A DNA stretch of 64,000 bases from Promethearchaeota archaeon Loki_b32 (GCA_005223125.1 NJBH01000002.1:64001-128000); one strand, 5' to 3'. Shown: positions 47,680 through 64,000, counted from the first letter of the stretch. Numbers and translations: made by a program. Notes: generated by a model not told the origin, from the sequence alone.

Positions 47680-48051
47680 TTAATCAATTTCATAAACTTT
47701 TCCTGATTTGATTAACTTACATAAAAATGGGATATCATTATCCGGATTTCCTGTCATCTTACTTGAGATTGCTTTTAACTTTTTTCTCGGATGAAAATGG
47801 TGAGGCCGTGTGATAACATCCCATTTATCATCATAGTTATCATATCGACAACGATCTAATTCAAATTTCGAAAAAATAATGCTATAACTATATTCTCCAT
47901 AATTGTTATATCTAATAAATATTTGGACGTTATCCCTCAGTATAACATGAATTCTTGCTAGTTTGGGTTCAAAATTAATAGTTTTTAAGAGAATAGATAA
48001 GTGTTGATGAAGGAGTAATTTTGCTTTATCTAGTAGCTTTAAGCCTAGCAT
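47680..48051 (-). CDS. DUF6516/TumE-like putative toxin
   Basis: YSY...RYDN......TRPHHFH motif. Confidence 0.65.
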   Translation of the reverse strand: MLGLKLLDKAKLLLHQHLSILLKTINFEPKLARIHVILRDNVQIFIRYNNYGEYSYSIIFSKFELDRCRYDNYDDKWDVITRPHHFHPRKKLKAISSKMTGNPDNDIPFLCKLIKSGKVYEID

Positions 48052-48067
48052 TAAAGATCATTTAAAT

Positions 48068-48310
48068 TTATTGATCATTCCATTCTTTTTTCAATAAAAA
48101 TAATTCTTCTCTTTGATCTAACAAATGTCTTAAAGTGATAGCATCGTCTTCTGCTTCCTCAATAGTTCCATCTTTTGCATCTTTAAGGAATTTAGAAGGC
48201 TCTTCATAATCCCATTTACTTAATATTTTATCAATTTCCTCATATAAGAACTTTAGTTTCAAATCTACTAACTCTTCTAATAATTCCTTTTCTACACGAA
48301 TACTAGTCAT
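48068..48310 (-). CDS. Putative antitoxin partner
   Basis: 80-aa acidic helical protein immediately upstream of the DUF6516-like gene. Confidence 0.6.
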   Translation of the reverse strand: MTSIRVEKELLEELVDLKLKFLYEEIDKILSKWDYEEPSKFLKDAKDGTIEEAEDDAITLRHLLDQREELFLLKKEWNDQ

Positions 48311-48396
48311 TTGCTCAACACCATCCTCTAGAAAACCTACTAAATATAAAAATCTTTATTTTTTATTGAAATTTGCTTGTCTTTAAATTTTTTCTG

Positions 48397-48513
48397 CTAC
48401 ACATATATGACCTCTTCAAGGATATATTGTTTCAATTCCTCTTTTAAGCTAGATTTTGATACTATATCAACTTTTTTAGTTTTTTTGAGAATCTCTTCTT
48501 TATAATTTACCAT
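48397..48513 (-). pseudogene. Internally deleted MNT (minimal nucleotidyltransferase) antitoxin remnant
   Basis: MVNYKEEILKK joined directly to KKVDIVSKSSLKEELKQYILEEVIYV*, a typical MNT C-terminus; the GS..D.D core is absent. Confidence 0.55.
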
Positions 48514-48649
48514 TTTTCTGACATTTTTTATACGATATTTTAATCTGGAGATATATTTTTTGGATGAAATGAAATTGGATTTTAGGAGAGTTAAGCTAAA
48601 TTGGATAAAAGGCGATTAATATATCTGATGTAAAAGATAAATGTCGAAA

Positions 48650-48796
48650 TTATTCCTCAATGATAAAATCAGGCTGATAAATCTCATCATCTTCACTATC
48701 ATCTGGATCTTTCATGAATTTTAATAGGGCTTCAACAATTTTGTCTGGTCTCTTACCCTTTCCTGCTAACGCTTCAACTTTTTTACGATTCTTTAA
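48650..48796 (-). pseudogene. 3' fragment of a truncated gene
   Basis: LKNRKKVEALAGKGKRPDKIVEALLKFMKDPDDSEDDEIYQPDFIIEE*; no N-terminal start; opens where the integrase fragment begins. Confidence 0.45.
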
Positions 48797-48797
48797 T

Positions 48798-49160
48798 TAC
48801 ATCCCAAAAAGCTTGGTCAAGTTTTTAGAGATTTTTCTTGAAGAAAGAAAATTAAAGAATGTAAAGACTAAAGCTTTATTTCTTTTCACACATTTAAAAA
48901 GATACAATGAAAGAGTGTTTAACGTATATTTAAAGAAAGTATTGAATGATTTGATTATTGAAAAAAATATCACCTGTCACACATTTAGAAGAACTTTAAA
49001 TACACTTAGAAAAGTTATGGGATGCCCTAATGAAGACCGAAAAATACTATTGAACCATAAAGTTCAAGATGTGAATGTAGAATCCTATGTAAAGATGAAT
49101 TATAAACAATATATCGAACTATATGATAAATGGTATCCTTATTATGAAGTAGTTCTTTAA
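48798..49160 (+). pseudogene. Tyrosine recombinase/integrase, C-terminal fragment
   Basis: ITCHTFRRT (HxxR), LLNH, ESY catalytic Tyr; N-terminal half with the first Arg is missing. Confidence 0.8.
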
Positions 49161-52944: not shown

Positions 52945-53652
52945 TTAATAGCAATTTGAAAATATTAAATCCATCTGCATATCTATGTAATTTTCATTCT
53001 GATATTCACACGCACTACAAATTAAGTGAGTTATAGTACTTAAATAATTTATAATATCCTCTAATTCATCTGAATATTTTACTTGATTAAAACTAGAAAC
53101 ATTTAGAAGGAGTTCTTCATATTTGCTTTGTGAAAATGAAGACTTCTGTTTTAATAATTGATTATGGATTGCCATATATTTCATTAACTCCAAATTTTTA
53201 TCAGATGGCTTCAAAATAAATATTGATTCTATTTGCATCCAAATATGAAATGCTAGCTCTTCTAATATCGATGAAAATGCATATCTTTGCTGAACTGCTT
53301 TTAAAAAGAACTCTCGATATAATGGATAAAGATCATCAATTCTACTGACTTTAAAATTTACTATATTATTAATTAAATGGTCTAAAATCCCGAGGATGTT
53401 ATCGTCAATTCCCTCTATAACTGGAGGACTTGAAAGAATGAGGCAACCCGTTTTTTTAGTCAAATGAACATGACCTAACTCATGAATTATATCATAATCT
53501 TTACCTGATTCATTGAGAATTAAAATATACGTCTCTTGTGCCTGATCAAACTTAATACTAGTCTTAGAAGAAGACATAATCAGATTAATATTTACATTAT
53601 TTATGGATAATAAGTCTTTGTAATTATTTACTTTTTGAATCCATTTTTCCAT
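52945..53652 (-). CDS. HExxH zincin-like (ImmA/IrrE-type) putative metallopeptidase
   Basis: YDIIHELGHVHL; GAGGT SD overlapping the upstream stop; last gene of the operon. Confidence 0.6.
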   Translation of the reverse strand: MEKWIQKVNNYKDLLSINNVNINLIMSSSKTSIKFDQAQETYILILNESGKDYDIIHELGHVHLTKKTGCLILSSPPVIEGIDDNILGILDHLINNIVNFKVSRIDDLYPLYREFFLKAVQQRYAFSSILEELAFHIWMQIESIFILKPSDKNLELMKYMAIHNQLLKQKSSFSQSKYEELLLNVSSFNQVKYSDELEDIINYLSTITHLICSACEYQNENYIDMQMDLIFSNCY

Positions 53653-53662
53653 AAATATAACC

Positions 53663-54586
53663 TCAAAGTTTATAAAAAATGATATTCTCTCCTTTAAATG
53701 CTATACCCAGACCAGAATTTAGATCTCGAATTCTATATTCTAAATTGTTTTTATCGAAAATAATCTGTTCAAGTTTAAATTTTAATGAATTTTGCACTAT
53801 CTTATATATTTTTTTTATTTTTGACTTAATAGCGGTTTCTCCTTTAATAATCTCTTTTTCTACCCGTTTTAGATTCTTAATTAAAATATTACAATAATTT
53901 TTATCTACTATATTATATTGCGTAATCACCATTCCACCTCCAGGACAAAAATAAGTAGTTCCATCATCCATAACGATGGGAGTATTTGTCCCCCCATTTC
54001 TCCATAATTCTCTATCACTGTCAGAGGTTTTTTCACATGAATTCATTCTAATTTTAAATCGTGCAATTAAACTTGGCCAATTTCTGTGAACAATATTTAT
54101 TATTTCCTTGTTTGTCCAATCTTTATGAGTTAAAATCTGTATAAAATAAAAATGATTCTCGTCGAACATTGCAAACAGTATTTCATTTTGACCCTTTGAA
54201 AGTCTTTTAAGACCTTTAAATCCTCCAAGATGTAAATGATATGTTCCCCATTCATTAAGTGTCACATCTGGAAAATCTAATTTCTTTAATTTTCTACTTA
54301 AAAAAGGAGTAAGGTCTTCTCCTTTTATAATTCTATTCTCTAAGTCTTTAAGATTATTTTCAAGTCCTTTTGGACAATTAAATTCTTTTGATTTTAAAAT
54401 AGTTCTAGGTTTAGACTCAATTAAACTCCGATTTAAGTTCATATAAAGAAGGCATAGTTCATCAACATTATCCAAGTTCTTAATTTTCTGCTCATATTTC
54501 ATTTCCTTAAGTCGTTTGCTATTTTCTCTTATCATAGCTTTTAAAATTTCTTTAAAATCCTTAAGTAAATTAATTTCTATCATCAT
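53663..54586 (-). CDS. Hypothetical protein (EWGTYHLHLG motif)
   Basis: 307 aa; DLTPFLSR, D.TLNEWGTYHLHLG, FIQILTH..W; operon member. Confidence 0.65.
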   Translation of the reverse strand: MMIEINLLKDFKEILKAMIRENSKRLKEMKYEQKIKNLDNVDELCLLYMNLNRSLIESKPRTILKSKEFNCPKGLENNLKDLENRIIKGEDLTPFLSRKLKKLDFPDVTLNEWGTYHLHLGGFKGLKRLSKGQNEILFAMFDENHFYFIQILTHKDWTNKEIINIVHRNWPSLIARFKIRMNSCEKTSDSDRELWRNGGTNTPIVMDDGTTYFCPGGGMVITQYNIVDKNYCNILIKNLKRVEKEIIKGETAIKSKIKKIYKIVQNSLKFKLEQIIFDKNNLEYRIRDLNSGLGIAFKGENIIFYKL

Positions 54587-54609
54587 TAAATCATTGCATT
54601 AAAAAATTT

Positions 54610-56028
54610 TTATAACTTTTCTAATTTCAAGCATTTCGAAGCCATGATCCCAATTAAACGAGTCAATTCTAATTCAAATCCTCTTGAAATATCTTCACAT
54701 CTACTGAGACAATGTCCTGTCTCATGAATTAAGGTCCCAAAATAATGCTCTAATTTTCGTAAAGTACTTCTTTTTATAATTATTGTTCCAGTAGATTCTT
54801 CCCAAAGTCCATCAACTTCTCTGAATGTATAAGGATCTTTTCTCATTGTCTCGGAAATCTTTATTTTTCTTACTCTTCTTGGTTTTCCACCAATAAGCTC
54901 GAAAATTTTATCTGTTAAATTATAGATTTTCTTTTCTGATTCATTTAACTCTTCATGATCTATGAACTTAAATTCAAAACTTTCATGATCTTCAATGATA
55001 AATTGATCGATATCTCTGATAACATTACCTGAAATATCTTTTAAATCATGAATTTTTTCTCTTAAGCTATCTGGGATTGTAACTATATTCATTCCTCTAG
55101 ATTTGGCATCATCTATCAGATGAAAAGAATTTTGGATTTCAGAAGAAGTAACAAAAATTGCATTTAATTTTGAGCTAAGAATGCTTACTGCATGCTTTTG
55201 AACATCAATCCAACTTAATTCGTCATGATTTGTCCCTTGCTCAATCTTTTGTAAGTCTTCCATTAGCATTTTTGCAATATTTTCACCCTTGCAAGATAAT
55301 AGTATTTTCATAATTCTATCCCGGTATGCATTTCTCCCTACATTAGTTCTCTCTCTGTTTAATGCTTTTCTTATTTGTTTTGTTAAAGATGTAATGTTAT
55401 AACTAAATAGAAAGTATTCCTCTTCTGCCACTTTAACTCCATTTATATAGATAAATGCTTTTTCTTTAGTATTTTTATAGACATCTCCATAATCCGTTGA
55501 TTCAACTAATTTTTCCCCTGAAAACCTTAAAAATAATGCTTTTGCATTTTCTATACTCTCCACAGTAATATCTCCTAATAGAACATCGGTACCGATTAAA
55601 TCTGGGTCTGATGGGTGCAAGATCACTGCATGTAAGGTGTCTATATCTTCGAATCCATGCTTTTCGGATGTTTCTATCGTGATATCTCCAAATTTTGATT
55701 TGAGTAAAACATATACGCCATTTCTATCAAAAGTTGCTAATGCGTCTTTTAGACCTATTCCAAATTTTCCAATTAAATTTGGGTTCTCTAATTTCTCTTG
55801 ATTTTCATTCTGAGTTAAGTGATCATATTTGAGACCTCTACCGAAATCTCTTATATGCCAAAACCCATCTTCATCTTGAAAGACTTGTATATCTTCTGTC
55901 CCTGTAATCTTCTGTTCATCTATTGCATTAGCGATGACTTCCCTGATACCATGATGAACTTCCCAATCCTCTAAAATCTTTTCTATATTTAAATCAAAAC
56001 TTCTTTTGTCTTTCATAATTCCTTTCAA
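54610..56028 (-). CDS. GHKL-type ATPase fused to a C-terminal HExxH zincin-like domain
   Basis: REVIANAIDE (N box), IRDFGRG (G1), GKFGIGLK (G2), GT; C-terminal LIHETGH. Confidence 0.78.
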   Translation of the reverse strand: MKGIMKDKRSFDLNIEKILEDWEVHHGIREVIANAIDEQKITGTEDIQVFQDEDGFWHIRDFGRGLKYDHLTQNENQEKLENPNLIGKFGIGLKDALATFDRNGVYVLLKSKFGDITIETSEKHGFEDIDTLHAVILHPSDPDLIGTDVLLGDITVESIENAKALFLRFSGEKLVESTDYGDVYKNTKEKAFIYINGVKVAEEEYFLFSYNITSLTKQIRKALNRERTNVGRNAYRDRIMKILLSCKGENIAKMLMEDLQKIEQGTNHDELSWIDVQKHAVSILSSKLNAIFVTSSEIQNSFHLIDDAKSRGMNIVTIPDSLREKIHDLKDISGNVIRDIDQFIIEDHESFEFKFIDHEELNESEKKIYNLTDKIFELIGGKPRRVRKIKISETMRKDPYTFREVDGLWEESTGTIIIKRSTLRKLEHYFGTLIHETGHCLSRCEDISRGFELELTRLIGIMASKCLKLEKL

Positions 56029-57464
56029 CCTTCTTTTTCCATTTCTTCTAAATGCTTTTTAATTTCTTCATCCCCTGGACTTAATTCATTTGCTTTTAAA
56101 TAAGCTTTTTTAGCTTTTTCTAGATCTCCATTGTATTCATAAGCAATCCCTAAATTATCCCATATCATTGCATCATCTGAATCTGTCTCTAAAGCTTTCC
56201 TATAATGATCAATTGCATTCTGATATTCATCTATACAAATATAAGCTAAGGCAATATTAACTAAAGCATCAATATCATCTGGAACCTGATCTAAGATATT
56301 TTTATAGATCTTAATAGACTCTTCAAAATTTTTTGTTTCATAGTACGATTCGGCTAGACTGTGAGCATCTTCAATTGTAAATCCATTAGGAGCATATCTT
56401 GCTCCTATTTGATATACACGAATCTCAGTTATTCCGTCCTTAATTTTTGTATAAAATGAGATGGTATCGATTTTTATAATTCGATGATTATAACCAATTA
56501 TCTCGGTCGGGACTCCTTCTGGAGATAGTTTTTCCATATTATATATTGGTTGAGAATCAATATAATGAAAAGTTATATCTTTTCTTGTATCATCCATCGA
56601 AATTCTAAAATTAACATCAAATTTCGTAATTTCATAATCAGAATAATTTAGAAATCCTTGGGGGCTCTGTGTTAGGAGATTTCCAATTAAGTCAGGAGTT
56701 AATTCAGGTAAAGTTTCTCCCTCATCAATTTTAACTTCCCTTCTATAAATAATAGATTTTGTAGGGGGGCGTTTTTCCCTCTCTACTTTAAAATTTTGAG
56801 TATAACTCTCATACTCATCAATATCGGTTTGTTGAGCATTAATTTTATCGTCTAACTCTAAGCTATAGAGTTCCTCAGAAAAACGAGATCTTGCTTCATC
56901 AATCCAATCTTCGTCTGATATTTCTTCTAAATGGAATAGATTAGCCTGTATTTCTCTCAAGATATAAGATTTAATAGCAACGTGAAAATCTGAATATTGA
57001 TCACTATTTCTTAATTCTAAAAAATATTTATATTTCTGCTGACCATTTAAGTTGTCCAGCTTTGGGGATAATTTTACACTAAACGACTTAACGATATCAT
57101 CAAACCAAGATTCGAATTTACTTACTCTATAAATCTTGAGTTCAATTTGATCTTTAGCTTTAGAGAAAAAAGAAGCAATATCCATTCTATGGATGTTTTT
57201 TGATATTTTGAACTCCTTTATTTTATTTGCTTCATTTATAATTGGTGTCTTATATTTAAAACTGAGTGTGAAATCCTTGCGAGTGTTTTTTAGAATCCCC
57301 CGGAAATTTAATGGAAAATTTTTCACTTCATATTTCATAGAAGTAGGCATTGAGTTAATCCCTCCTATAAGACCTCGTTCTTTCAGATATTCAATTATAT
57401 CCTCTATTGTTAATCTAGAAATCTCTTTTACTAACTCTTTATATAATAATTTTTTTACTGTCAA
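56025..57464 (-). CDS. TPR protein with duplicated N-terminal domain
   Basis: Three C-terminal TPRs (DALVNIALAY, IWDNLGIAY..GDLEKAKKAY); GAGGTG SD with TTG start. Confidence 0.75.
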   Translation of the reverse strand: MTVKKLLYKELVKEISRLTIEDIIEYLKERGLIGGINSMPTSMKYEVKNFPLNFRGILKNTRKDFTLSFKYKTPIINEANKIKEFKISKNIHRMDIASFFSKAKDQIELKIYRVSKFESWFDDIVKSFSVKLSPKLDNLNGQQKYKYFLELRNSDQYSDFHVAIKSYILREIQANLFHLEEISDEDWIDEARSRFSEELYSLELDDKINAQQTDIDEYESYTQNFKVEREKRPPTKSIIYRREVKIDEGETLPELTPDLIGNLLTQSPQGFLNYSDYEITKFDVNFRISMDDTRKDITFHYIDSQPIYNMEKLSPEGVPTEIIGYNHRIIKIDTISFYTKIKDGITEIRVYQIGARYAPNGFTIEDAHSLAESYYETKNFEESIKIYKNILDQVPDDIDALVNIALAYICIDEYQNAIDHYRKALETDSDDAMIWDNLGIAYEYNGDLEKAKKAYLKANELSPGDEEIKKHLEEMEKEG

Positions 57465-57473
57465 AATCTCACC

Positions 57474-58958
57474 TCATTTTCTTTTTTCTAAATTAAAATT
57501 ATATTCTAATATCTCATTATACCATTCTAATAAAAATTCTTGCTCAACTCTTCCATTGATTAGAATAAATTGAGCAAAATTATTTAATTCAGAAATCTCT
57601 GATTTAATAAATGCTTGTAAAGAATCGATTTGTCCAAGGGGTATCTCTCGATATGGAATGTGAAATTTTAATGGAATTCTTATTATTTTTATATTTTCAA
57701 ACCCTAATCTAGTGTAAATTTCTCTAAATATATTGCATCCTCCTAGGTCATAATCTAACCATACAAAATATTTAATTTCTGGATTATTTCTAATAATTTT
57801 TTTAAGAATTGACTTCCTAAAATGTCCAGAAATTCCCATTCCTTTAATAAAAATAAGTAATGCGTTATTCTCAGTAGCCCAATTATCTAATACCAGTTGA
57901 GCAAACACCGCGAGATTTTCGATAAGCAAAACTATATCTGCATTCAGCTCAATAGAATTAATATTACTATAAGATAAATTAGAAAATGAAACTGATGGTC
58001 CAGCAATCTTAATAGATTTTCCATTCTGCATTTTTAAAATTAATTCTCCAGAAAATGTAAATGAATCTAATGCCAGTATAAGACCAATATCTTCACAATT
58101 CTTACTCGAAAAGTTCTTTATAATGGAATTAATGTCATTTGAGTATTTATCAAGGACTTTAGAAGGATCTTCATTGAATGAGAGTTCTGATTCCTGAAAT
58201 GCTCTTGCTGATACTTCTCGTAATGTTAAATTGTCTCGATAAATTTGTAACCATGTACACAATCCGTATAAAATAATTAGAAATTTTGGAGGATTGGTTG
58301 CTGAGTTCTGAGGTTTAATTGAGGTTCCGTTATTCTTTATCCATTCAGGATTTCCTTCCTTTAATAATTCTAATTGAACATTTAATAAAGAAAAAATGAT
58401 TTTCTTGTTTGCCTCTAAATCATCTTTATTAAAGATATCTAATGTATTATTAATTTTTTCAATTCCAAGAGCTATTTGCTCTTCTACATTTAAGAATCCA
58501 GTTAATTCTTTCAGCTCTTGTTTTCCATCATCTGTTAAAGAATAATATATTTTTTCATTATTAGATGTTTGAATAACATCAATTCTTTTGAGGATTAACC
58601 CTTTTTGAATAAATCCTTCTGAGATTTCATCAAGATCTTGATTCTTATAATAATTCTTTAATTTCTTTTTCCAAATATTTTCATTGATTTTATCATCCCA
58701 TAGTACTGAGATAATTGATCTGAAGAACGCTAATTCATTTTCTTCGAAATTATAATTTTCAATTGGAATTGTGCAAGTAATTAGTTTTTTTTCTTTTCTA
58801 CGTTTTCCCCAAGTCATTTTATGTAGTGGACATTCTTTAATTTCGAAACTATGAATTACCTGATAAGGCCCCTCAGTTATTTCATATACTTTATTAACCC
58901 ATTCAAATGAATCTGAGGGACATTCGCAAGGTTTTTTCTTAATGCTCTCGGATGGCAT
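57474..58958 (-). CDS. jetD: Wadjet JetD-like Toprim nuclease
   Basis: LREVSARAF...DPSKVL, LLIENL (Toprim Glu), WLDYDLGG (DxD), VEQE; directly downstream of the SMC gene. Confidence 0.8.
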   Translation of the reverse strand: MPSESIKKKPCECPSDSFEWVNKVYEITEGPYQVIHSFEIKECPLHKMTWGKRRKEKKLITCTIPIENYNFEENELAFFRSIISVLWDDKINENIWKKKLKNYYKNQDLDEISEGFIQKGLILKRIDVIQTSNNEKIYYSLTDDGKQELKELTGFLNVEEQIALGIEKINNTLDIFNKDDLEANKKIIFSLLNVQLELLKEGNPEWIKNNGTSIKPQNSATNPPKFLIILYGLCTWLQIYRDNLTLREVSARAFQESELSFNEDPSKVLDKYSNDINSIIKNFSSKNCEDIGLILALDSFTFSGELILKMQNGKSIKIAGPSVSFSNLSYSNINSIELNADIVLLIENLAVFAQLVLDNWATENNALLIFIKGMGISGHFRKSILKKIIRNNPEIKYFVWLDYDLGGCNIFREIYTRLGFENIKIIRIPLKFHIPYREIPLGQIDSLQAFIKSEISELNNFAQFILINGRVEQEFLLEWYNEILEYNFNLEKRK

Positions 58959-61830
58959 CAGTTAAATCTCTTACTCGTTTTATTTCTTTATCAAAATTAA
59001 TTAATGTAATCTGAGATTCTTTATTTTGATTTTTCCAAATTTGAATAATATGGGGAAATATTCTTATATAACCGGGTGTAGGGGTATATGGAGATATGCA
59101 AATTAATTTTTTATTAGGTAAATGTTGCTCGATGACCCTTGCTAGAAGTTCCTTATGGTCATCAGCTATATTTTGATCAAACTCGTCCCATACCGAAAAT
59201 GGTGAAGGAGATTCGGCTAATATTGCGATCTCAAATGCTATAGAAGCTCTAAGTCTTTCACCTTTACTAAAATTCGCATATTCGATAGCATCTAATGACC
59301 CATCAATTGTATTTGAGACATTTATATTTAATTGATAATCTCCCTCAATTTCTGTTGGATTGAACTTTAATTCTCCATCTAAATTAAGCCCTCTCATTAC
59401 TGATCTGTAACGACGACTTACTATATCTTGCCATTTAATAAGCTTGTCTTTTAAATTATCAACAGCAATTAAAAATGTATTTTGGCATTCATTTTTTTCA
59501 TATTCATATTGTTGATTTAATTCTTCCAAAGTTTGAATATCTTTTTTAGAAACTTCATAAATTTTGACAATTGAGGAATCTATATCTTGATACTGATCAA
59601 GGGCTGATCTCGTCTCAATAATTCTTTTTTCTAATGCTTCTAATGTTTCAGAAGGTTTCTTGATTTTGTGTAAAATTGTCTTAGCTTCATTGGTTATCGC
59701 ACGATACTGAAAATTTTCATCAATAATATAGTTATCAACTATTGAAACTGTTTCTTGGTTATCCTCAATATTTTCCAAGAGAGTCCAATTCTCTACTAAA
59801 TTATTAAACGTATTTGCGGTGTTCGTTAAATCTTTTATTAATATAGTTAGTTTATTTATATTTTCATTAATAGAATTTTTTTTTTCTTCCCTAGTTTTTT
59901 TAAATCTTTCATTATCCTCTTTCAGACGCTCTATATTTTGTCTAGGAAATGAGAGTATAGAAATTAACTCATTTAATCTATTAGATAAATCTCCTTTTTT
60001 TTCTATAATTTCATCAATATCTTTCTCTTCTTCTCTCAATGCGAGATATTCTAATTTTTTATTTATTGTTTCTAGATTTTGCTGTCTTTCTGAAATTTCA
60101 GATTTAAAATCTCCCATTTGCTTCTTCAAATTTTCTATAAGCATAAATAATCGATTTTTTTCTTTCTCAGGTGCGCCTTCTCCTATCATGTAGGGGGTAT
60201 TGATAAAATGGAATTTTCTTTGAGAATAAATATTATAGGTGTACCCATCTTGGCAATAAATTCTAGAATAAGGGGCATCTTCTAAAAATAATTCCTTTTC
60301 TTCAAAAGTATTCGCGAAATAAAAATTATGCATCATTAAATTCATTAAATCTTCAATTGTTTCTGAAGGAAGTGATTGGGGGCACACTTCTAACAAGTCT
60401 GACCAATCTCGTAATCCTTTTTTTCCCTTTAATACATAATTTTTTCGAGGACTTAAAATAATTGCATCTGATTTTAAATCTCTATTGATTTTTTCAGCAA
60501 TCCTGCCGTGTTTTTCATCAACAACTATACCTGTTTTATATGAAGCTAAAATATTTTCAATATATTCTTGCCATCTTTCAGTTCCTTGTTTAAAATCCAA
60601 AGTCTCATATAATAATTCAGAGTTGATATCTCTTTGTTTTAAGGCATTTTGAACCTTGAAGATATCAGAAGGAATATCAAATTTCTTTTGTTCTAATTCT
60701 TTTAATTTTTTATTATACTCGCGATATTCTCTTTGGATAATTACCAAGTTTGCCTTTATTTCATCTAACTTTTGTTCTTTTTGCTCTTTTTCTTCTTGAA
60801 TGAATAATTGATCAGATATCTCTGAAAGTTCTATATTAAGATTTTGTAAATATGAGATAACAACTTCGTATTTATCTTTATAATTTCTTATCTCATATTC
60901 CATATCATAGACTTCTTGTTGTACTTTATCCTTCTCTTCTTTTTGGGATTGGAATTTTTCTTCTATATTAGTGATTTTAGTTTTATTGTTTTTTATCTCA
61001 TTTCTTAATCTTTCAATATCTTCCTTTAACTTTTCATTCTCTTCATAAATACTTATAAAATCTTTTTGGTTATCATCAAAACTATTAAATGTAAAATGGA
61101 TTTTTGCTTTAAGTTCCTTTATTTGAAGTTCTGCCAAATACCTCTCAAACTCAACCTTTTTTTGATATCTTTTGTAAGTTGCTTCAATATTTTGGAATTT
61201 TATATAAAACTCCCTTAATTTATCATTTGCTTCATCTAATTTCTTGTCAGCCTCATCAAGCTCATTTCTTGTTATTTTAACCTTTTCTTTATAATCTTCG
61301 ATTCCAATAAATTTTGAAACTGCATTATATCGTTCTTTCGGCGATTTTTGAGTCCATATTGCGGTCTGTTGATCATCAATAAAAATAAGAGGGTCTTTCC
61401 ATTCTCCGAAATTTTTTAACTCTTCTTTAGTAATTTTTTTTTCCTCTCCTTTAATTCTTATATAACGTCTATTCCTCTTTTTCTTACCTTTAAAGGCCTC
61501 AAGACCTATAGTTATTTCTTCGTCAATTGGATAGATATTTAGGGCATCTGGGCCTGTATTTAATACAGCTAATTCAATTTTAGCATGATTCTTATAGACT
61601 TTACTTTTAGTACCCCCTTCTTCAATTTCCTCATAAGTAAAAAATTCATTATCTCGTTCAATTTTTCTTCCTAAAACATACTGTACTGCATTAAGGATGT
61701 GTGACTTACCTGAACCGCTACTTCCAGTAACATAGCAACGATCACTGAGATCTCCGAAGGAAATAATCGTATTTTTATGACTTCCAAAATTTTGTAAAAA
61801 TAATTGTTTTAGTATAGGATAACTACCCAT
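58939..61830 (-). CDS. jetC: SMC-family ATPase (JetC position)
   Basis: Walker A GSSGSGKS, long coiled coils with a central hinge, signature FSKGE, Walker B VWDEFD. Confidence 0.85.
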   Translation of the reverse strand: MGSYPILKQLFLQNFGSHKNTIISFGDLSDRCYVTGSSGSGKSHILNAVQYVLGRKIERDNEFFTYEEIEEGGTKSKVYKNHAKIELAVLNTGPDALNIYPIDEEITIGLEAFKGKKKRNRRYIRIKGEEKKITKEELKNFGEWKDPLIFIDDQQTAIWTQKSPKERYNAVSKFIGIEDYKEKVKITRNELDEADKKLDEANDKLREFYIKFQNIEATYKRYQKKVEFERYLAELQIKELKAKIHFTFNSFDDNQKDFISIYEENEKLKEDIERLRNEIKNNKTKITNIEEKFQSQKEEKDKVQQEVYDMEYEIRNYKDKYEVVISYLQNLNIELSEISDQLFIQEEKEQKEQKLDEIKANLVIIQREYREYNKKLKELEQKKFDIPSDIFKVQNALKQRDINSELLYETLDFKQGTERWQEYIENILASYKTGIVVDEKHGRIAEKINRDLKSDAIILSPRKNYVLKGKKGLRDWSDLLEVCPQSLPSETIEDLMNLMMHNFYFANTFEEKELFLEDAPYSRIYCQDGYTYNIYSQRKFHFINTPYMIGEGAPEKEKNRLFMLIENLKKQMGDFKSEISERQQNLETINKKLEYLALREEEKDIDEIIEKKGDLSNRLNELISILSFPRQNIERLKEDNERFKKTREEKKNSINENINKLTILIKDLTNTANTFNNLVENWTLLENIEDNQETVSIVDNYIIDENFQYRAITNEAKTILHKIKKPSETLEALEKRIIETRSALDQYQDIDSSIVKIYEVSKKDIQTLEELNQQYEYEKNECQNTFLIAVDNLKDKLIKWQDIVSRRYRSVMRGLNLDGELKFNPTEIEGDYQLNINVSNTIDGSLDAIEYANFSKGERLRASIAFEIAILAESPSPFSVWDEFDQNIADDHKELLARVIEQHLPNKKLICISPYTPTPGYIRIFPHIIQIWKNQNKESQITLINFDKEIKRVRDLTDAIREH

Positions 61831-62494
61831 TATTAGGTTCCTCCTCTTTCTTTTGTTGAATTACATCCATCACACTTAATTGTCTAGTGGTTGGTTTAAG
61901 TATTTTCCTCAATTCTAAATAATCTTTAGGCAAATAGGGTTCTAAATTAATATCAGTATATTCTTCATCTATTTCTCTTAATATACGTTTAAGCATTTCT
62001 GGAGAAATACAGGCTTTTAAGACTGTTGTAGGGTGGTATATTATAATATTCTCTCTTTTAATTTCTATTATCCATCGATTGTGTCTTAACTCTCTTAATA
62101 TTCCTCTCAATTCATTCGCACTTATACTGGTTGATTGTAGTTTTTGTTCTAAGAGATCAAAGGTTGGTCCCTGAGAATATTCAAATTCATGAAGAAGAAT
62201 AATACAAACAAGTGCTATTGCCTTATTTGAAATTGCTCGCCTTTTTGATTCATAAGCATCAGGATTTATGATAATAGGAACAATTTTATCTTCAGTCTCG
62301 ACAATTTGAAGAATTCCTTCGAAATATCGATTTGTCGTTATAATAAATTTTTTAATTTCTTCTGTATTGGGGAAATTTAATAATTTTGAACTTATACCTG
62401 GACCTTTAGATGTTCCTTGAAGAATTATAGAAATCTTTCTCAAAGTTTCTTTATCTAATCCCATTTTATCATAATTATATAAATCTTTCTGCAT
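61823..62494 (-). CDS. jetB: Putative KITE subunit (JetB/MksE-like)
   Basis: 223 aa, winged-helix pattern (LRGILRELRHNRWIIE...YHPT); overlaps both neighbours; position in the operon. Confidence 0.6.
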   Translation of the reverse strand: MQKDLYNYDKMGLDKETLRKISIILQGTSKGPGISSKLLNFPNTEEIKKFIITTNRYFEGILQIVETEDKIVPIIINPDAYESKRRAISNKAIALVCIILLHEFEYSQGPTFDLLEQKLQSTSISANELRGILRELRHNRWIIEIKRENIIIYHPTTVLKACISPEMLKRILREIDEEYTDINLEPYLPKDYLELRKILKPTTRQLSVMDVIQQKKEEEPNNG

Positions 62495-63858
62495 TAATGT
62501 CCCTCCATTATTTTTTCATCAATTATATTATATTTTCTAGCAGTAAATTTTTCAATATATCTTTTGGAATCATTAATTATACGAAATTTGTTTTCAAGTT
62601 GGATTTTCTGTTCAAGAGATAGAGTATAAAACATTAATAAGTTTTCTAGAAAAGTACGAGGTTTTTTATTCTTTACGATTTGGTAATCTTCCTCTGGATT
62701 AAATTTAATTGCTTTCTTTAACAGTTCTTCCTTTAACGGAATAAGATCTGATTTTTCCACCACATTTTCAATAAAAGATTTTTCCTCCAAAATAGAGCTT
62801 GGAGCTTCGGGTAATTCTTCAAATTCCGTATCTTCTACTTTTCTTAGAACATTGATTAACGCTCTTTTTACATAATAAGAATTGATTTTCATAGGATATT
62901 GTACTGGAATAGCACAAGTATTACAATTAAAAAATATCTCTTGCCAATTTTTATTGGTAAAATTATTGAGAATAAAATCTTGCATTTTAATAAAGGGAGT
63001 CTCTAATAGCCCACCTCTTGATTTTGCCAATTTAAAGTCGTATTTTGCAGAAGCTATATTTAATAATTGAATGACCGCATCAAATATGCTAGTGCTAATT
63101 TGAACATGATGTTGAATAGTCAGACTTGAATTTCCCAATTCATCCTTATTTTGAAATTCTAAAATTTGATCTATTAATTTATGAATTTCACGGATTTTTT
63201 CATCGATATCGGGATCTTCTAAAATAATATTTCCTTCTCGTTTTAAATTTTCTACAAAATCTTTTAATGCATTAATTAATCCATAAATCCAATTCAATTC
63301 TAACCCGTATTGTTCAAAACTTATAAAAGAACGTATCATTTCAACCATAACAAATAAATCCTCGAAAATTCCATAACGCTTCATTGCGATTGTTTCTAAC
63401 TTGAGTTTTTGGTAAGTATGAACGAGAAATTTTCCCATAGAAGTAAGTTTTAATATCTCCCCAATATTTTGAAGAGGGCTTAAAATGGATCTTCCTGTAA
63501 GTTTGGATAAGAGATCTTCAAATTTTTCCCATGAAATAGATTCAAAATCTTTGCAAAAACCTTCGAATATTGAATATTTAGATTGTTCTCCTTCAAAACT
63601 TCTCTTCATTCCAATATAGAATAAAATTTTCATTGCTGTATTTAAATCCTCTTGATTGGAAAATTTCCCCATATTTTTTCCAAAGGATAATAACATTTTA
63701 TCAGCAGCTTTTGATTCATGAGAATCACATGACATAACTTCATCGATACTTATTTTTGGAATAAGTTTCCTTAAACTATCTTGAGTTTCTTTTGAGAGAA
63801 AAAAACTGTTCTTTTTTGATTCAATTTCATTTTGGGTATTTTCTATATTTTCTTTCAT
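62494..63858 (-). CDS. jetA: Putative kleisin subunit (JetA/MksF-like)
   Basis: 454 aa; N-terminal wHTH ending LKLTSMGK, helical middle; C-terminal FLENL.MFY.L....KIQL resembles a kleisin wHTH; first of the four core genes. Confidence 0.6.
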   Translation of the reverse strand: MKENIENTQNEIESKKNSFFLSKETQDSLRKLIPKISIDEVMSCDSHESKAADKMLLSFGKNMGKFSNQEDLNTAMKILFYIGMKRSFEGEQSKYSIFEGFCKDFESISWEKFEDLLSKLTGRSILSPLQNIGEILKLTSMGKFLVHTYQKLKLETIAMKRYGIFEDLFVMVEMIRSFISFEQYGLELNWIYGLINALKDFVENLKREGNIILEDPDIDEKIREIHKLIDQILEFQNKDELGNSSLTIQHHVQISTSIFDAVIQLLNIASAKYDFKLAKSRGGLLETPFIKMQDFILNNFTNKNWQEIFFNCNTCAIPVQYPMKINSYYVKRALINVLRKVEDTEFEELPEAPSSILEEKSFIENVVEKSDLIPLKEELLKKAIKFNPEEDYQIVKNKKPRTFLENLLMFYTLSLEQKIQLENKFRIINDSKRYIEKFTARKYNIIDEKIMEGH

Positions 63859-63910
63859 TTAACTTCTACTTATTCTTTCTTTTAATTAGGTTTGCTAAAT
63901 TAATTTTTTT

Positions 63911-64000
63911 TCAATAGAATTCTTGAACTTTGGACACATTATCAATTATATTTACTTCAAACAATGTATCGGCGATATCTTCTAATTCATTATGATGAGT
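63911..64000 (-). CDS. 3' end of a Rad50/SbcC-like ABC ATPase (not in ORF track)
   Basis: Reverse strand reads THHNELEDIADTLFEVNIIDNVSKVQEFY*, matching the H-loop and terminal strands of Rad50/SbcC. Confidence 0.6.
   Translation of the reverse strand, partial: THHNELEDIADTLFEVNIIDNVSKVQEFY

Follow-up and report, generated by a model that had tools for sequence, protein, structure and literature searches.

A divergent, probable Wadjet-type SMC nuclease core adjoining a resection operon in an Asgard archaeal defense island

Results

Gene content and junctions of the locus

The 64,000-nucleotide stretch of Promethearchaeota archaeon Loki_b32 DNA analyzed here (GCA_005223125.1, NJBH01000002.1:64001-128000; hereafter, the window; G+C content of about 29%) carries, at positions 52945-63858, eight minus-strand open reading frames (ORFs), all co-oriented, which we denote A to H. 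Genes A to D make up a Wadjet-type SMC nuclease core: A encodes a kleisin-like subunit of the JetA/MukF type (62494-63858, 454 aa, by predicted fold), B a KITE-like tandem winged-helix subunit of the JetB/MukE/ScpB/Nse3 type (61823-62494, 223 aa, likewise by predicted fold), C an SMC-family ATPase (58939-61830, 963 aa; Pfam SMC_N), and D a JetD-like Toprim nuclease (57474-58958, 494 aa; Pfam JetD_C and PADLOC JetD1). These are followed by E, which combines a duplicated, previously undescribed domain of about 75 aa with three C-terminal tetratricopeptide repeats (TPRs) (56025-57464, 479 aa; Pfam TPR and internal repeat); F, a predicted GHKL (Bergerat-fold) ATPase with a C-terminal HExxH zincin part, of the MPN635_N family (54610-56028, 472 aa); G, a PD-T4-7 family gene (53663-54586, 307 aa; PADLOC); and H, which encodes a small HELGH zincin-like protein (52945-53652, 235 aa; weak Peptidase_M78 match). 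On the other side of A, 52 nt separate its start from the stop codon of rad50, of which only the 3' end lies in the window (63911-64000, minus strand); the whole gene encodes 895 aa with a zinc hook, and its operon extends beyond the window.

The original prediction, made from the sequence of the window alone, had treated the eight genes as one translationally coupled unit, and the tight packing on which it drew is confirmed by the coordinates. With the called starts, A/B overlap by 1 nt, B/C by 8 nt, C/D by 20 nt and E/F by 4 nt, and the remaining junctions are gaps of 9 nt (D/E), 23 nt (F/G) and 10 nt (G/H). The E/F value probably has to be revised: because alignments with homologs of F begin at residue 5 and the Atlas record has Met5 as its first residue, the true start of F is probably Met5 at position 56016, which would turn this junction into an 8-nt gap. 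GGAGG-type Shine-Dalgarno (SD) sequences precede B and C, and two SD motifs overlap upstream stop codons, as had been claimed: at the D/E junction (TGAGGTGAGATT-TTG) the GAGGT-type SD of E overlaps the TGA stop of D, and at the G/H junction (TGAGGTTATATTT-ATG) the GAGGT-type SD of H overlaps the TGA stop of G. Neither A nor G has an SD. An AT-rich, TATA-like stretch lies upstream of A; a T6 run follows the stop codon of F, and a TATA-like element, TTATAAAAA, lies upstream of G. At the level of the sequence, these signals hint at two units, A-F and G-H, with G probably having its own promoter.

The SMC nuclease core

Gene D exceeds the cut-off of the Pfam JetD_C profile (24.5 bits against a cut-off of 22) and matches PADLOC JetD1 (4e-16). 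In an alignment of 16 homologs reaching down to 25% identity, E347 is invariant, D402/D404 (DxD) are nearly so, and an N-terminal Cys/His cluster (C11, C13, C43 and H46; CxC...CxxH) is kept; a profile search of the PDB gave a borderline match to TopoVI-A (0.028). Gene C possesses Walker A (GSSGSGKS), signature-like (FSKGE) and Walker B (VWDEFD) motifs and matches Pfam SMC_N (4.8e-12) as well as AAA_23; its PADLOC JetC match (2e-12) is weak and lies mostly within the coiled coil. The closest heads in a PDB sequence search are those of Smc, Smc1 and Smc3, with no MukB or JetC among the matches.

For A, there was no match in Pfam, NCBIfam or PADLOC, and for B the same three sources gave nothing usable, including no PADLOC JetB match; both proteins were therefore assigned from AlphaFold2 models, each built on an 11-sequence alignment. 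The model of A is of moderate quality (pLDDT 62). Kleisins lead its Foldseek matches in the PDB, namely MukF (probability 0.97), JetA (8q72_E/8as8_E/9qxt_E), Nse4, Rad21 and the C-terminal winged-helix domain of ScpA, and VIA-align gives Z scores of 9.5 (211 residues) for N. vireti JetA and 9.0 (about 200 residues) for MukF. At the fold level, A is predicted to be a MukF/JetA-like kleisin, a class characterized by an N-terminal winged-helix domain and helical bundle and a C-terminal winged-helix domain. The model of B is good (pLDDT 76.5) and contains two winged-helix domains; Foldseek matches it to ScpB (3.2e-4), Nse3 in the Nse1/3/4 complex (6.5e-4), MukE and JetB (8dk1_E, TMt 0.50), so that B is modeled as a tandem winged-helix KITE protein. 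A is present in all related loci, and the jetA-B-C-D-type order recurs at every one of them with the gene sizes and tight overlaps preserved.

A Toprim nuclease with intact catalytic residues is found at all core loci except L021, a relative in which A and C are 42% and 41% identical to those of the window. At L021:9611-11365 (G253:C290), a JetD-like N-terminal part (residues 4-294) is fused to a Ser/Thr kinase (Pkinase, 9e-43) that replaces the Toprim domain; the N-terminal part of this fusion has no evident ATG, GTG or TTG start.

Taken together, JetD_C, JetD1, SMC_N and the predicted folds of A and B support the earlier reading of A-D as a Wadjet-like set of kleisin, KITE, SMC and Toprim subunits. 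We conclude that A-D is a highly divergent Wadjet-type SMC nuclease core, far from the described types, the enzymatic activity being predicted from motifs and models. The earlier statement that the system fits no described subtype is also supported, as PADLOC finds neither JetA nor JetB in the core.

The core is rare. Among 5.8 billion proteins, D has 16 homolog clusters (at least 51% identity), and every named one comes from Asgard metagenome-assembled genomes. D occurs in five of 400 Asgard genomes and in two of 53 genomes of the genus, and scans of genome and metagenome collections with a narrow D alignment recovered only 2 genome loci and 9 metagenome loci. Thus, the A-D family has so far been seen in Asgard archaea only, and the core is accessory, patchily distributed and located in a defense island.

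The upstream resection operon

The steady partner of the core is the resection operon upstream of it and not the downstream tail. Just beyond the window (locus L013) lies a co-oriented NurA-HerA-Mre11-Rad50 operon, with rad50 as the last gene, recognized by Pfam matches to NurA (1.8e-11), DUF87 (4.3e-36), Metallophos (6.7e-14), AAA_23 (2.3e-24) and Rad50_zn_hook (1e-9). An Mre11-like phosphoesterase and a Rad50-like ATPase are encoded directly 5' of A, in the same orientation, at nine of the 11 loci with sequence upstream of A, and HerA and NurA are seen where the contig reaches far enough; the gap between this module and A is as small as 3 nt.

The module exists in three versions that BLAST relates to each other only over P-loop segments. 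The window version is also found in one other genome of the genus (G184). The L001/CR_4 version has a Rad50-like protein of 1047-1161 aa, and the L002 version consists of a 446-aa protein, HerA-, Mre11- and Rad50-like proteins of 813, 473 and 870 aa, respectively, and a protein of 233 aa. Of 400 genomes, two encode a Rad50-like protein of the L002 type, in both cases adjoining ABCD. Comparison of individual loci reveals that either half can be swapped while the pairing of resection module and core persists. Between L002 and L008, the upstream genes are 88-91% identical whereas A-D are 32-48% identical; conversely, between the window and L001, A-D are 74-89% identical whereas Mre11 is about 25% identical and Rad50 aligns in short terminal segments only (25-33%).

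Among loci L002, L008, L010, L028 and L005, the composite locus is a mosaic, with breakpoints between the Rad50-like gene and the gene for the 233-aa protein and between the latter and A. L002 and L028 are 87% identical in the Rad50-like protein and 55% in the 233-aa protein, the corresponding values for L028 and L005 being 57% and 88%.

We also considered the window operon as a housekeeping copy of the resection genes and rejected this possibility, since a full-length homolog of its Rad50 is found in only one of 53 further genomes of the genus (G184, 47% identity), which is not the pattern of a universal housekeeping gene. In the genome from which the window comes, contig 58 carries another HerA/Mre11/Rad50-like set, and a Rad50-like gene of this type, at 70-80% identity, is present in three of five sampled relatives; it is commoner, yet not universal.

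Genes E and F

Most core loci have none of E-H. The genes 3' of D include opposite-strand restriction-modification methylases (L001), an HNH gene (L002) and small unrelated ORFs (L008, L010 and L022).

A different arrangement is found at L005:11485-15165, where D is followed after 14 nt by a co-oriented gene for a Mrr_cat nuclease (247 aa) and then by a gene for a 966-aa TPR protein. Products with TPRs may recur as an accessory feature of these loci.

In E, Pfam matches the TPRs at residues 365-472, and the internal repeat aligns residues 45-115 with 277-354 (32% identity, E-value 2e-9). Only two full-length homologs of E were found, in L056 and L055, and nine of 400 Asgard genomes encode the repeat domain, in most cases with neither D nor F. 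E and F are found together in three lineages: the window and L056; L055; and Lokiarchaeon CR_4, where the E-like gene comes after F and is permuted, with the TPRs preceding a single copy of the domain. At L055:250-1827, the ORF of E opens with what is left of D, its last 34 residues in frame (74% identical), and is followed by F. Judging from this arrangement, the E-F cassette may have outlived the core, most of which would have been deleted, or the short contig may be chimeric.

F follows D via E in the window and L056, and directly in L012 and L030, where D is 81-83% identical to that of the window. It also follows D in L038 (D 35% identical; F 84%, over the part present) and in CR_4 (D 29%, F 51%). 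F lies immediately 3' of D, overlapping it at some loci, although D and F are each present in only 1-2% of Asgard genomes. In the tree of D, some D-F loci group with the window in a clade that is well supported, and CR_4 and L038 form a deep pair; this topology points to at least two, and probably three, separate joining events. We therefore view E-F as a facultative cassette that was joined to the 3' end of the operon in at least two, probably three, lineages.

The F homolog of CR_4 (L029:11543-12755) is split between two frames, one matching residues 11-52 and the other residues 95-468, whose coordinates overlap, pointing to a frameshift or deletion in the GHKL domain.

The assignment of F as a GHKL Bergerat-fold ATPase is predicted from motifs: the N-box (E30/N34/D37), the G-boxes (D61xGxG65 and G87-G92) and H435-E436-xx-H439 are invariant in 19 homologs, and HATPase_c matches 18 of the 19 family members. 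PF25856 is a precomputed annotation on F homologs of 95% identity and below, the local Pfam scan having given none for F itself. For the zincin part, all matches are below threshold (MPTase-PolyVal in 8 of 19 members, best 0.0031; SprT-like in 6 of 19, best 0.0052). A PDB profile search with F gave a borderline match to the GyrB N-box (0.013).

The family is large, with more than 5400 homologs, and its conservation is unusual, members from different archaeal and bacterial phyla being about 60% identical. Of the eight Asgard genomes in which F is full-length, six carry it solo. On plasmids, F is found between hsdS and hsdR (Salinibacter pSR56), beside a prokaryotic Argonaute (pAgo) and PLD (Natrinema), or alone, and at L023 it has a NurA-HerA-Mre11-Rad50 operon on one side and a type I restriction-modification operon on the other. 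In a bacterial assembly (L025:5144-8261), a lone F homolog sits between two opposite-strand genes for 227-aa PF01168 (YggS/Ala_racemase_N) proteins, an arrangement suggestive of an insertion that duplicated the target gene. F was also considered as a phage gene; this was rejected, as a tblastn search of 50,697 phage genomes returned one 24% match, although the Atlas neighbors of F include clusters labeled as viral.

Genes G and H

Gene G matches both PADLOC profiles of PD-T4-7, PDLC04066 (2.8e-33; residues 6-260 against positions 9-272 of 337) and PDLC04065 (2.1e-26), and we confidently assign it to this family by profile; its putative abortive-infection activity is extrapolated from the family. 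PD-T4-7 is an abortive-infection-type, toxin-antitoxin-like defense gene, with phage protection known for the E. coli gene only (10.1101/2022.05.12.491691), and is reportedly enriched in Asgard archaea. Three of 341 genomes sampled contain G homologs. H, with its HELGH motif, gave a weak match to Peptidase_M78 (0.025), and its family is rare, with 24 cluster representatives in 1.84 billion.

Outside the window, L056 is the only locus where G and H come after D, in the order D-E-F-G-H; because this locus is 95-98% identical to the window, it belongs to the same lineage and provides no independent support. In every other lineage examined, G and H are absent after D. They are thus add-ons specific to the window lineage. 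The possibility that G and H form a conserved pair was rejected as well, since the G homologs in two other genomes (G144 and G265) lack a neighboring H in the 1.5 kb or so covered on either side, as far as the contigs permit.

At L057:1090-3269, the single closer H homolog (37% identical) is convergent to a gene for an E-like protein, with the repeat domain and TPRs (25% identity over 192 aa). No G or F is located near this H homolog, and the link between E and H is an unexplained hint.

The original prediction had suggested that the four genes after D may extend the core into a larger system. They are not a single conserved extension, given that G belongs to PD-T4-7, that G and H are confined to the window lineage, and that the other loci have restriction-modification, HNH, Mrr or unrelated genes in this position. 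The expected co-conservation of the downstream genes across genomes is borne out for F and, at times, E, which recur after D in divergent lineages, with the qualification that both families occur mostly without the core; for G and H it is not.

The surrounding island

The part of the window described here is the 3' half of an archaeal defense island. Upstream of the NurA-HerA-Mre11-Rad50 operon, across a 192-nt gap, are head-to-tail genes for a short pAgo (492 aa) and an APAZ-type partner (473 aa) (L013:6992-9907; G000:C21:134792-137707). Just past the 3' side of the island, the window contains a TumE-family toxin gene (47680-48051, minus strand) and a phage-integrase fragment of 148 aa (48714-49160, plus strand); the G+C content of this segment (47680-49160) is 23-24%, consistent with a mobile or variable region.

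Discussion

The explanation that we favor, with a probability of roughly 0.7, is that the locus consists of a divergent Wadjet-type core, a linked upstream resection operon and modular downstream add-ons, and is not a fixed eight-gene machine. The core resembles the known Wadjet systems (JetABCD, MksBEFG and EptABCD; types I-III) in its kleisin-KITE-SMC-Toprim order with overlapping junctions, in the JetD_C and JetD1 matches of D, in the folds of A and B, and in its patchy occurrence within a defense island. It differs from them in that C is short (963 aa), with heads nearer in sequence to Smc/Smc3 than to MukB/JetC; in that D has the N-terminal CxC...CxxH cluster; in that A and B escape the PADLOC profiles; and in that the family is Asgard-only and usually preceded by an operon of the NurA/HerA/Mre11/Rad50 type. 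Similarly, the upstream operon has all four domain families of the archaeal HerA-NurA-Mre11-Rad50 operon, co-oriented and abutting; unlike that operon, the window-type Rad50 is rare in the genus, and other loci carry very divergent versions, one of them with the extra 233-aa protein. The Rad50-like gene that the original prediction had placed in a larger system thus belongs to a resection module that co-occurs with the core, whereas the four tail genes are no fixed part of such a system.

Several observations weigh against this explanation. The core loci are small in number and belong to related Asgard lineages, which means that their counts are not independent, and the functional assignments of all genes here are made from sequence, predicted folds and context. 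The Foldseek E-values for A are weak (best 1.9e-3), its model is only of moderate quality, and the PADLOC JetA and JetB profiles miss A and B; furthermore, because the heads of C are nearer to Smc than to MukB or JetC, descent from bacterial Wadjet is unproven. The TATA-like element upstream of A and its lack of an SD suggest that A may begin its own transcript. Two loci, L012 and L021, have no resection module directly upstream. In G184 (L067, C30:53000-72999), the BREX genes brxA, brxB and brxC, and no Wadjet-like core, come after a NurA-HerA-Mre11-Rad50 operon of the window type (47-70% identical); the upstream link could therefore be a matter of clustering in defense islands. Finally, the closest relatives of F lie on contigs of 14-24 kb with no D on the same contig, as judged from contig sizes. 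A further feature of L067 is an unannotated 1388-aa protein that precedes the resection operon.

The strongest competing account extends this argument from clustering to the whole locus, with the resection operon, ABCD, E, F, G and H being independent and simply stacked, without cooperation. The island also contains the pAgo-APAZ pair, the TumE toxin and the integrase fragment, a window-type resection operon adjoins BREX in G184, F is solo in most Asgard genomes and most plasmid contexts, and proteins with the E domain are mostly located elsewhere. However, clustering yields variable neighbors, whereas here one functional class of genes, in three non-orthologous versions, lies 5' of A at 9/11 loci despite recombination, the L002-type module is found only with ABCD, and F is immediately 3' of D in at least two lineages of D notwithstanding the rarity of each gene. 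Accordingly, we consider independent stacking unlikely, at about the level of an explanation that deserves to be kept in mind. The opposite extreme, namely that the eight genes and Rad50 form one translationally coupled and proteolytically regulated super-Wadjet in which the TPR protein, the GHKL-zincin protein, G and the HExxH peptidase control the SMC nuclease, would accord with the short gaps and overlaps between co-oriented genes, the SDs over the stops at D/E and G/H, the order retained in L056, and the recurrence of F and E after D in divergent lineages. Yet L056 comes from the same lineage, G belongs to a family of stand-alone genes, the T6 run and TATA-like box intervene between F and G, and most core loci lack E-H, with the close relatives L012 and L030 having D-F without E. 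For G and H, the absence after D in all other lineages largely refutes this scheme, and nothing in the analysis shows the proteolytic regulation that had been proposed; we regard it as quite improbable.

Slightly less probable still is that the core is a chromosome-maintenance or repair complex, akin to Smc5/6 or MksBEF, that works with an Mre11-Rad50 break-repair operon. The C head is closest in sequence to Smc/Smc3, B is as similar to Nse3/Nse1 as to JetB, and the core does adjoin an operon of the repair type. Nevertheless, the patchy distribution of the core, the JetD-type Toprim domain that is present with intact catalytic residues in all but the kinase-swapped variant, the mosaic exchange of cassettes, the defense-gene neighbors, and the presence of the adjacent Rad50 at full length in a single other genome of the genus are all at odds with a function in chromosome maintenance. 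The evidence thus leaves the combination of a divergent core, a linked resection operon and modular add-ons as the preferred reading, and the interpretation given in the original prediction as partly supported.

Under the preferred reading, the core, by analogy with JetABCD, would load on DNA, extrude loops and recognize small circular DNA, which D would then cut to give a linear product. JetABCD cleaves small circular DNA, leaving ends that are free and RecBCD-sensitive (10.1101/2022.10.04.510915, 10.1101/2025.03.10.642339). It is established that archaea lack RecBCD, and their end resection is carried out by HerA-NurA with Mre11-Rad50 (PMC12977600). Because Jet-cut ends are free and archaea have no RecBCD, the simplest account would be a system with two stages, in which the NurA-HerA-Mre11-Rad50 module may be the degrader of the DNA linearized by the core, which would make restriction irreversible. 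A full-text literature search found no paper that mentions Wadjet along with NurA, HerA and Mre11.

Genes embedded in type I restriction-modification loci have a precedent in PrrC, an anticodon nuclease whose gene lies between hsdS and hsdR. F is similar in position, being located between hsdS and hsdR in pSR56, just before hsdM in L023, and at the 3' end of the Wadjet-like operon. It is different in kind, combining a predicted GHKL ATPase with a putative SprT-like zincin and containing no anticodon nuclease, and a guard function for F is conjectural. Type I restriction operons and the Wadjet-like operon both encode ATP-driven translocases that cut on stalling; for this reason F could, speculatively, be an accessory or back-up module of DNA-translocating restriction machines. 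A resemblance to topoisomerase VI is also apparent, in that D has a TopoVI-A-like Toprim domain, F has a GHKL domain, and the two genes are adjacent at several loci; unlike that enzyme, F has no match to the transducer domain and contains a zincin, and most F occur without D and most D without F. E-F would act as a facultative cassette, translationally coupled to D in the window. G, on this reading, would be an independent abortive-infection gene, and H a rare zincin coupled to G in the window lineage only. G resembles PD-T4-7, described as a single E. coli gene (Vassallo et al. 2022), over about 260 residues and in both PADLOC profiles; it differs in being archaeal, in being known from sequence alone, and in being followed by the translationally coupled H, which is absent beside other G homologs.

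Wadjet in Asgard archaea is not new, as it has been reported from a Lokiarchaeon culture using PADLOC (10.64898/2026.02.13.705702). What is new is the divergent family missed by the PADLOC JetA and JetB profiles, its conserved linkage to the resection operon, and the modular 3' add-ons. Because the JetA and JetB profiles do not match, standard defense finders probably would not call the system complete. More tentatively, and with the odds somewhat against it, the locus might be an Asgard-specific immune machine of 8-9 genes, in which a loop-extruding, Wadjet-like SMC nuclease is hard-wired to HerA-NurA-Mre11-Rad50, either half can be traded as a cassette, and a GHKL-SprT-like protease, alone or with a TPR adaptor, is an optional third module shared with type I restriction. 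If so, this composite machine would be the archaeal counterpart of JetABCD plus RecBCD, and the kinase that takes the place of the JetD Toprim domain in one relative would hint that the SMC sensor can drive different outputs.

An Asgard lineage with Smc-like heads and a MukF/JetA-like kleisin broadens the known range of SMC-based immunity. The repeated docking of F onto Wadjet-like and type I restriction operons is a first functional lead for a widespread, so far uncharacterized family of GHKL-zincin proteins. The link to the resection module suggests a testable answer to the question of what destroys Jet-cut DNA in organisms without RecBCD, and it raises the possibility that, where archaeal genomes have accessory copies of 'repair' operons, these serve as immune effectors.

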